Shown: positions 3,478 to 5,448 of the stretch, in pieces
Layout of the letters: the number at the start of each line of letters is the position of its first letter
Numbering within the stretch: the first letter of the stretch is position 1
DNA from: a virus
Taxonomy: Duplodnaviria > Heunggongvirae > Uroviricota > Caudoviricetes
Reading direction: 5' to 3' (one strand)
Length of the DNA: 14,254 nucleotides
Virus record (IMG/VR): IMGVR_UViG_2721755727_000004
Program-made: the position numbers and the translations under genes
Notes under the pieces: model-generated
What the model was told of the DNA's origin: nothing
Seen by the model: only the letters and a program-made list of their open reading frames with translations
Database searches by the model: none

Positions 3478-3503
3478 TTTTCATAAACGTTGGTTTGGGA
3501 GAA
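3478..3503. repeat. Invertase crossover site, pinE-proximal (hix/gix-like 26-mer)
   Basis: TTTTCATAAACGTTGGTTTGGGAGAA; 21/26 identical to the reverse complement of 5146-5171; resembles the hix core AAACCAAGGTTTT. Confidence 0.75.
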
Positions 3504-3980
3504 GGCTCTGCATTACCTGTTGGTGTCCCGGTTCCGTGGCCTTCAGCCACTCCGCCAACAGGCTGGCTGAAATGCAATGGTGCCGCTTTTTCTGCTGAAG
3601 AATACCCGGAACTGGCAAAGGCTTATCCGACAAATAAATTGCCTGATTTACGTGGTGAGTTTATTCGTGGCTGGATGACGGGCGGGGGATTGATACAGGT
3701 CGCTCTATTTTAAGTATTCAGGGGTATGCAACGGAGGATCATGCTCATGGATTACCGTCAAGATCCACGATTGTGACTGATGCAACGATTAATTTCTATT
3801 TTGATGAAATATGGGTAAATAGTGGCACTGACATTATCAAAAGAGGAAACACAAACGATGCGGATTACCAGCCCGGATTATGGAACCTTTAAAACATATA
3901 AACTCAGTGGATGGTTAGTGCCGCAGCCTCAGAACGCGTCCGCGTAAATTGCATTTAACTATATCGTGAGGGCAGCCTGA
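3492..3980 (+). pseudogene. stfE: Alternative tail-fibre variable C-terminal region (promoterless, frameshifted)
   Basis: Frame 0 reads GLGEGSALPVGVPVPWP...LPDLRGEFIRGW, then the homology continues in another frame (DDGRGIDTGRSILSIQGYATEDHAHG...), returns to frame 0 (DYGTFKTYKLSGWLVPQPQNASA), in-frame TAA at 3945, then IAFNYIVRAA and TGA at 3978. Confidence 0.75.
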
Positions 3981-4534
3981 TGCATAAAGCAATATTAAAT
4001 AGTGACTTATTGCAACAAAGGCAGGGGATGTTACCGTTTAAACTACGATGGTGAACACGGGAATATATTTCCACTTCAATGATATCTTGCCGTGGTGTCG
4101 GCATTCGGCATGTTCCTGTTTAGATGCCCTGGTACACATAAGGCTGGTTATGCAATCGCCGTCTGCAGATTTTAACTCATGGGATATGTGCCAGACCATC
4201 GCGGTGAAACGGTCTATAGCACCAAACTGGAGAATCAAAGAAATCAAAGCTCCGGGTGTTTACCCTGAATCAACCACTATCGGCCCCTTTATCTCATCGA
4301 TAATGGATGTGAGAAATGGTGCCGATACTGAACCAGCGCATAGCGCGCAGTGACGCGGCAGGCACAGCGCCAGTCACTGATGTGCTGCAATGGCCCCATT
4401 TCTGATTCAACTTGAATGAGGCGGACGTAAACTGATGCAGGCGAAATCAACCGCACGCTGTGCTGGATTTCATTGACGCGTGCGGCAAAGTACCGCACCC
4501 GCCGGATGTCATCTGGCCTAACTGCCGAGCGTAG
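3980..4534 (+). pseudogene. tfaE: Tail-fibre assembly (Tfa-like) gene remnant, multiply frameshifted; the track's 101-aa ORF 4048-4353 lies inside
   Basis: ATG at 3980 overlaps the stfE stop (TGATG); Tfa-like segments in shifting frames (FNSWD / VPDHRGETVYS, AAKYR, C-terminal PPDVIWP at 4499-4519, stop 4532-4534). Confidence 0.45.
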
Positions 4535-4990
4535 GCCATTCAATATCTGGCGCACTGGATGATCAACCAGTTCCAGTGCTTCCAGATAATCCAGCCACAA
4601 ATTATATTGTTTCAGTCATCTTCTTTAGTCTTCCCATGCAGCTTACCTGCCACTGTCTGCTATTGATAAATCAGTTGCATAGAGATAAGCATCTGCTTTT
4701 GAAAGTTCGCATCTGCGACTTCATCATCATGAGTACGGATAACCTCTTTATAGAAGGAGGAAAACAGAAAAATCGATCACGCCTCCTTCAGCTTGAGATT
4801 TTATAATGACTGCCAGTGTTCTGCCGTTATTTCTTTAGATCTGCGAATGACGCCACAGCCATCCATAAAAAAAAAACGTATTTAGCAACAGTATATTTCA
4901 TCTTAATACCCATAGATCCATTATAGTATCCTCCGTTGACTGCCACCGTAATAAAAACGAGTGGTTGTATATCCCCCCGTTGCCACTCAT
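4518..4990 (-). pseudogene. tfaP: Tail-fibre assembly (Tfa-like) gene remnant, convergent with the plus-strand one; the track's 103-aa ORF 4289-4600 lies inside
   Basis: ATG at 4990 overlaps the stfP stop (ATGA); the only long frame reads NLWLDYLEALELVDHP, the Tfa motif APDIEWP (4533-4553) is in a different frame, stop at 4518-4520. Confidence 0.4.
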
Positions 4991-5448
4991 GATAGCGCGA
5001 CATAAATCACACGGAAACAGGCATTATTGCCGGATACCTTTTCCATTCCCGGGGATGCTTTCGGCACAAACGAATGATTGCATTTCATCCACCTGTTCCG
5101 GATGGCTAGAAACCGGGCGCCAATTAGCCGTTGCTGCAGAGGCCCTTCTCCCAAACCAAGGTTTTCGAGAGCCGTTTGCACAGTGCCATCCGATTTGATA
5201 TCGCCAAACGGATTCTTGCGGCTTAACAGCAGCGCGCGAAGTGCGGTAAGTAACTGGTCGTGCCGCCCCTTCTCCAGGCTGGCACCGGATGCCTCCACCA
5301 CGCTGCAAAGTTCCTCCTGCAACATGTCAAAGTAGTCATCATCCAGATCGGTGGCAGGCGTGCCGGTCTGGGGGTTACCACGGGTAAAACCGTTCTTACC
5401 CGCGCCGAACTTATCCTTCTGCGCGGTTTTCGTGTCTATACGATGCAT
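4987..5448 (-). CDS. stfP: Side tail-fibre protein: conserved N-terminal part fused, in this orientation, to a short degenerate variable arm
   Basis: 153-aa [23 protein letters not shown]...ENLGLGEG; the crossover site lies in the GLGEG codons; the downstream part shares WMKCN with the stfE arm. Confidence 0.7.
5146..5171. repeat. Invertase crossover site, stfP-proximal (hix/gix-like 26-mer)
   Basis: TTCTCCCAAACCAAGGTTTTCGAGAG, about 20/26 matches to hixL as I recall it; inverted partner of 3478-3503. Confidence 0.75.

Follow-up and report, generated by a model that had tools for sequence, protein, structure and literature searches.

We conclude with high confidence that the DNA analysed here, a stretch of 14,254 nucleotides filed in IMG/VR as a virus record (IMGVR_UViG_2721755727_000004; hereafter the window), carries an ordinary, functional P-segment switch of prophage e14, and that the apparent erosion of the genes inside its invertible segment (3478-5171) is a consensus artefact of mixed-orientation reads. 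A sequence-only reading had described the same locus as a working switch controlling an eroded payload. Comparison with Escherichia coli K-12 speaks against that description: the lesions are mostly single-base deletions, they are bounded by the crossover sites, the flanks are 100% K-12, and the bases that have been removed are those that disagree with the inverted allele.

A BLAST search of positions 2800-5500 against complete E. coli genomes placed the window at the pinE end of e14, a defective prophage of E. coli K-12. Positions 1-3672 and 5145-14254 (12,782 nt) are exact substrings, at 100% identity, of the record of the MG1655 derivative MGY (NZ_CP019629), and from these exact flank matches it follows that the window is K-12 DNA. 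The segment lies in the orientation of the MG1655 reference. The RefSeq annotation of NZ_CP019629 gives the gene order as ycgX, iraM, an icd' fragment, mcrA, pinE, stfE (annotated ‘phage tail protein’), tfaE, tfaP, ycfK (stfP) and ymfQ; beyond ymfQ come truncated baseplate J, portal and terminase genes, then regulatory genes, xisE, intE and lit. We note that the partial isocitrate dehydrogenase gene (icd', 1531-1698), which lies beside mcrA, marks the attachment-site end of e14; its position means that the window reaches from outside e14 (ycgX, iraM) to lit. At approximately 6027-8779, the genes for baseplate J, portal and the terminase large subunit are truncated, partial pseudogenes in the matching K-12 annotation, and the tail-fibre switch therefore resides in a prophage that is unable to build particles. 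The defectiveness of e14 has long been known, and there is no new biology at the locus. For the invertible P segment of e14 (pinE, stfE, tfaE, tfaP and ycfK/stfP), the sources given are Plasterk & van de Putte 1985 and Mehta et al. 2004, as they are cited in PMC4272514.

The serine DNA invertase gene pinE (2869-3423, minus strand) encodes 184 aa in RefSeq and, as the sequence-only reading had said, is full length, with an intact frame that matches the Pfam families Resolvase (2.4e-51) and HTH_7 (2.6e-14). Its product is identical to K-12 WP_000905001, its DNA is also identical to K-12, and among solved structures the Gin DNA-invertase (3uj3, E 6.8e-93) is its best relative. An upstream ATG, at 3459, opens a frame of 196 codons, and the RefSeq start at 3423 yields the protein of 184 aa; the 196-codon version would overlap the start of stfE on the opposite strand. 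The left 26-bp crossover site (3478-3503, TTTTCATAAACGTTGGTTTGGGAGAA) forms an inverted repeat with the right 26-bp site (5146-5171, TTCTCCCAAACCAAGGTTTTCGAGAG), and their cores are a 21-nt inverted repeat with 95% complementarity. The left site includes TTGGTTTGGGAGAAGG, the repeat given in PMC12529663. Both sites had been judged well conserved; the left is unchanged with respect to K-12 and the right agrees with it letter for letter.

Both orientations of the segment occur in K-12. The orientation of the window is found in 167 complete genomes, and the predicted inverted junction (300 nt) is found at 100% identity in 113 complete genomes, including MG1655, DH5alpha, DH1 and EMG2. Single clonal cultures also hold both: the two orientations were reported at 1:1 in clonal MGY cultures (PMC4272514), and wild-type BW25113 was reported to be approximately 30% inverted, rising to 49% on overproduction of PinE (PMC12529663). 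The genomes and the clonal cultures bear out the earlier expectation that inversion is still possible: it does occur.

In this switch PinE, a Gin-like serine invertase, recombines the two inverted 26-bp sites; by analogy with its family it would cut at the central dinucleotide of each site, with strand rotation to follow. With one site inside ycfK/stfP, inversion exchanges the StfP arm for the StfE arm together with the matching tfaP or tfaE. In the intact K-12 sequence, the right site falls within ycfK, leaving the first 92 codons constant and the downstream arm exchangeable, and inversion in silico at the site centres joins the N-terminus of YcfK to the StfE arm in a 262-aa fusion. The annotated start of stfE (window 3453-3477) is not part of the segment but sits between it and pinE, 25 nt from the left site. 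With the start outside the segment, the same in silico inversion therefore makes a complete 125-aa chimera (StfE2) of the stfE start and the StfP arm. The 262-aa and 125-aa products correspond to the published StfP2 and StfE2 (PMC12529663). The inverted state gives StfE2, which is reported to block adsorption of phage T2 (Kirigo et al. 2025, PMC12529663), and the main driver of inversion is reported to be PinQ of prophage Qin, with PinE as the lesser one (PMC12529663). It had been suggested that the switch may have been retained for another reason. For the intact locus such a reason exists, and the published answer is the block to T2 adsorption by StfE2 (PMC12529663); the eroded payload that the suggestion took for granted does not stand.

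Every difference between the window and K-12 falls within 3673-5144, an interval of 1472 nt in the window and 1631 nt in K-12. A global alignment resolves these differences into approximately 120 deletion events (163 nt), 13 substitutions and four inserted bases, approximately 137 events in 1.6 kb, against none in the 12,782 nt of flanking sequence. Deleted bases outnumber substitutions by approximately 12:1, and 93 of the approximately 120 deletion events are of single bases. Over the first 195 nt of the segment there are no deletions, and their density climbs to approximately 36 per 100 nt near its right end; the last difference, at 5144, is no more than 2 nt from the right crossover site. 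None of the complete RefSeq E. coli genomes carries the garbled sequence, the best match being 93.7%, and neither an exact-protein look-up of the 153-aa garbled open reading frame nor an exact search of genome contigs with a 40-mer from the garbled right end returned a match. We considered inverted homology between the fibre arms or the tfa genes as a cause of the gradient and rejected it: blastn of the K-12 segment (3679-5531 of the K-12 record extract) against its own reverse complement found only the 21-nt site cores.

The lesions run through all four cargo genes, each of which is full length with the expected domains in intact K-12. The alternative fibre C-terminal arm stfE (3453-3980, plus strand; 178 aa with a Collar domain in K-12) has eight deletion events in the window, the first at 3673, and the earlier count of two frame changes plus a stop for this arm was too low. 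The tail-fibre assembly gene tfaE (3980-4534, plus strand; 200 aa, Caudo_TAP in K-12) has 46 deletion events, four insertions and five substitutions, and tfaP (4509-4901, minus strand; also an assembly gene, 137 aa, Caudo_TAP in K-12) has 21 deletion events. The variable C-terminal arm of ycfK/stfP (4903-5145, minus strand) is the most garbled stretch, with 48 deletion events removing 84 nt; in K-12 it carries the Gp53-like_C domain of the 209-aa YcfK. The constant N-terminal part of the same gene, outside the segment (5172-5448, minus strand), is identical to K-12. As the sequence-only reading had observed, neither tfa gene retains an intact frame in the window: the longest tfa-like frames in the segment encode 101 aa (4048-4353, plus strand) and 103 aa (4289-4600, minus strand). 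It was also right that the fibre N-terminus is joined to an arm of 51 residues, as the open reading frame that runs downwards from 5448 ends at 4987 after 153 aa, approximately 51 residues past the site. A Pfam search with the two tfa-like frames and the 153-aa fibre frame gave no match. The coding content is thus eroded in the letters as given, with frames that are truly broken there, but the same genes are intact in K-12 and we take the erosion not to be real in the organism.

The pattern of loss is specific to the inverted allele. We asked whether the deleted bases are those at which the K-12 segment (F) and its inverted form (R) disagree. The longest common subsequence (LCS) of F and R is 1202, and that of the window segment and R is 1205, despite the net loss of 159 bases. 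Random deletions in equal number, also when placed within the same 50-nt bins, gave an LCS fraction of 0.678 ± 0.002, compared with 0.711 observed (z approximately 17). In controls that used reverse-only and complement-only sequences, shuffles and unrelated K-12 DNA in place of R, the deletions cost the window segment 50-57 LCS positions. At its right end the segment is visibly a hybrid, in which the K-12 stfP arm is mixed with the stfE arm in reverse complement. The window contains a 15-nt inverted repeat (3564-3578/5077-5091), and ATTGCATTTCA, in the right arm of this repeat, belongs to the K-12 stfE arm read as its reverse complement and is absent from the K-12 stfP arm. The window segment is therefore approximately a common subsequence of the two orientations, as a mixed-orientation consensus would leave.

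In this region, four K-12-derived RefSeq genomes differ from MG1655 only by single-base deletions, all of them within the invertible segment: NEB 5-alpha (NZ_CP017100) has 23, NEB5-alpha F'Iq (NZ_CP053607) seven, ATCC BAA-196 (NZ_CP042867) six and BE104 (NZ_CP040643) one. In these assemblies PGAP calls stfE, tfaE, tfaP and ycfK frameshifted pseudogenes. They differ from the window in carrying 1-23 deletions, as against approximately 120, mostly at other positions; the window shares between zero and six deletion positions with each of them, and we therefore regard the deletions as independent events and not as inheritance. The four assemblies probably show the same artefact at a lower dose. All four have lost one C from a C7 run in ycfK (K-12 reverse-strand coordinate 5459; approximately 5047-5050 in the window, where the sequence is garbled), a loss that could be a homopolymer error or a real K-12 polymorphism.

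A toy simulation took noisy reads from the two alleles, aligned each end to end with a draft in the window orientation and formed the consensus by majority vote; errors arose inside the segment only. Most of them were deletions, and they were densest at the right end, as in the window, the skew appearing despite the lack of inverted homology noted above. Simulated deletions coincided with observed ones in 7 of 8, 9 of 13, 14 of 32 and 41 of 114 cases, where a uniform distribution would give 0.7-10 (P from 1e-7 to 1e-17); a hand estimate corrected for density raises the expectation for the run with 114 deletions to approximately 23, and part of the overlap comes from the shared concentration at the right end. 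In the heaviest run the profile per 200 nt correlates with that observed at r = 0.91. With 30-55% inverted reads the simulation produced zero to two errors, and many errors needed at least 60% inverted reads or repeated rounds. At a load like that observed it also makes too many substitutions, with 77 per 114 deleted bases compared with 13 per 163 in the window. It is a crude model and is to be read qualitatively only.

We therefore suggest the following origin for the garbled letters. The culture that was sequenced would have held both orientations, as K-12 cultures are reported to do, and long reads of the inverted allele may have been made to align with a draft that had the window's orientation. 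The consensus would then have dropped bases where the alleles disagree, leaving roughly the subsequence that the segment has in common with its reverse complement. What such an origin should leave behind is present: errors between the sites with perfect flanks, retained bases that are shared with the inverted allele, and recurrence in four other assemblies. Decay of the cargo should be recognisable by a natural spectrum of changes, in which substitutions are at least as common as indels, by divergence that reaches into the flanks and is not bounded by recombination sites, and by lesions inherited by relatives, and none of these was found.

It is extremely unlikely, in our judgement, that the window records real pseudogenisation in a K-12 sub-lineage that acquired frameshifts in four cargo genes and kept pinE and the sites. 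The frames are broken as given, and relaxed selection is plausible in principle in a defective prophage, where there is no virion for the fibre genes to serve. However, such a history would have to confine approximately 137 events to 1.6 kb without a single change in 12,782 nt of flank, stop them 2 nt from the right crossover site, and favour deleted bases over substitutions by a ratio that is the reverse of natural mutation spectra. It would also have to spare each base that belongs to the common subsequence with the inverted allele, and no mutational process could know where these bases are; other K-12 assemblies carry different sets of deletions in the same segment. Generic long-read error of the homopolymer or methylation-context kind, or a locally unpolished stretch, with no relation to inversion, seems to us very unlikely. 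The dominance of deletions does resemble an uncorrected nanopore consensus, and the C7 deletion common to the four other assemblies would fit, but errors of this kind give no account of the confinement to the invertible segment between perfect flanks, or of an LCS signal that is specific for the reverse complement of that segment. Homopolymer error as the sole cause was rejected, as 40 of the 93 single-base deletions are at non-repeated bases, outside any homopolymer run.

The contamination of the consensus by reads from the paralogous stf/tfa loci of Rac or Qin is barely credible. K-12 records do contain a second place that matches the query; yet mixing with a paralogue would give substitutions towards that paralogue in the homologous genes, and what is seen is deletions that extend through the entire segment and reach the non-paralogous arms as well. 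Paralogue mixing is moreover unnecessary, because the inverted allele accounts for all of the lost bases. We find it scarcely credible that the letters are faithful and that a K-12 sub-lineage really has approximately 120 small deletions limited to the DNA between the Pin sites. If it were true, it would imply mutagenesis coupled to inversion that preferentially removes bases mismatched with the inverted allele, for example if DNA that undergoes repeated cleavage and religation, or that is paired with an inverted sister copy, were processed in an error-prone way.

Earlier publications already cover the e14 Pin switch, the mixture of its states in K-12 cultures and its reported anti-phage role, and the interest of the consensus artefact lies in quality control. 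A long-read consensus can turn an actively flipping segment into false frameshifts, which then pass into annotation as pseudogenes; a milder form of the problem is seen in at least four RefSeq K-12 assemblies. Our search of the literature did not find this class of artefact described; the papers found report flipped phage-tail segments in long-read assemblies and not a garbled consensus. We suggest that a cluster of deletion-only ‘frameshifts’ between inverted repeats beside an invertase gene be taken as a sign of an active switch and not of a decayed one, and that the LCS of such a segment with its reverse complement offers a quick way to recognise the artefact without the reads.

The locus has the features of a Din-type tail-fibre switch: an invertase, paired sites, a site inside the fibre gene (on the intact K-12 sequence) and both orientations were all found. 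PinE resembles the invertases of the Gin/G system of phage Mu, the Cin/C system of P1 and Hin of Salmonella (the Din family) in being a small serine recombinase with a C-terminal HTH. Hin inverts a promoter and not fibre arms, and for Gin, Hin and Cin a Fis-dependent recombinational enhancer is known in the 5' part of the invertase gene. In Gin/G and Cin/C, as in e14, there are two inverted 26-bp sites, and the C-terminal arms of the fibre are swapped together with their assembly genes. The closest comparison is with the e14 P segment of K-12, which is the same locus: the two agree at 100% identity in the flanks, at both sites and in pinE, and the window has the gene order and orientation of the MG1655 reference. 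The window differs from it in being without 163 nt, lost in approximately 120 small deletions that we attribute to assembly. Unlike the Gin, Cin and Hin systems, e14 is a defective prophage without a virion, and the role reported for its switch is the defence of the host against T2 through StfE2 (PMC12529663).
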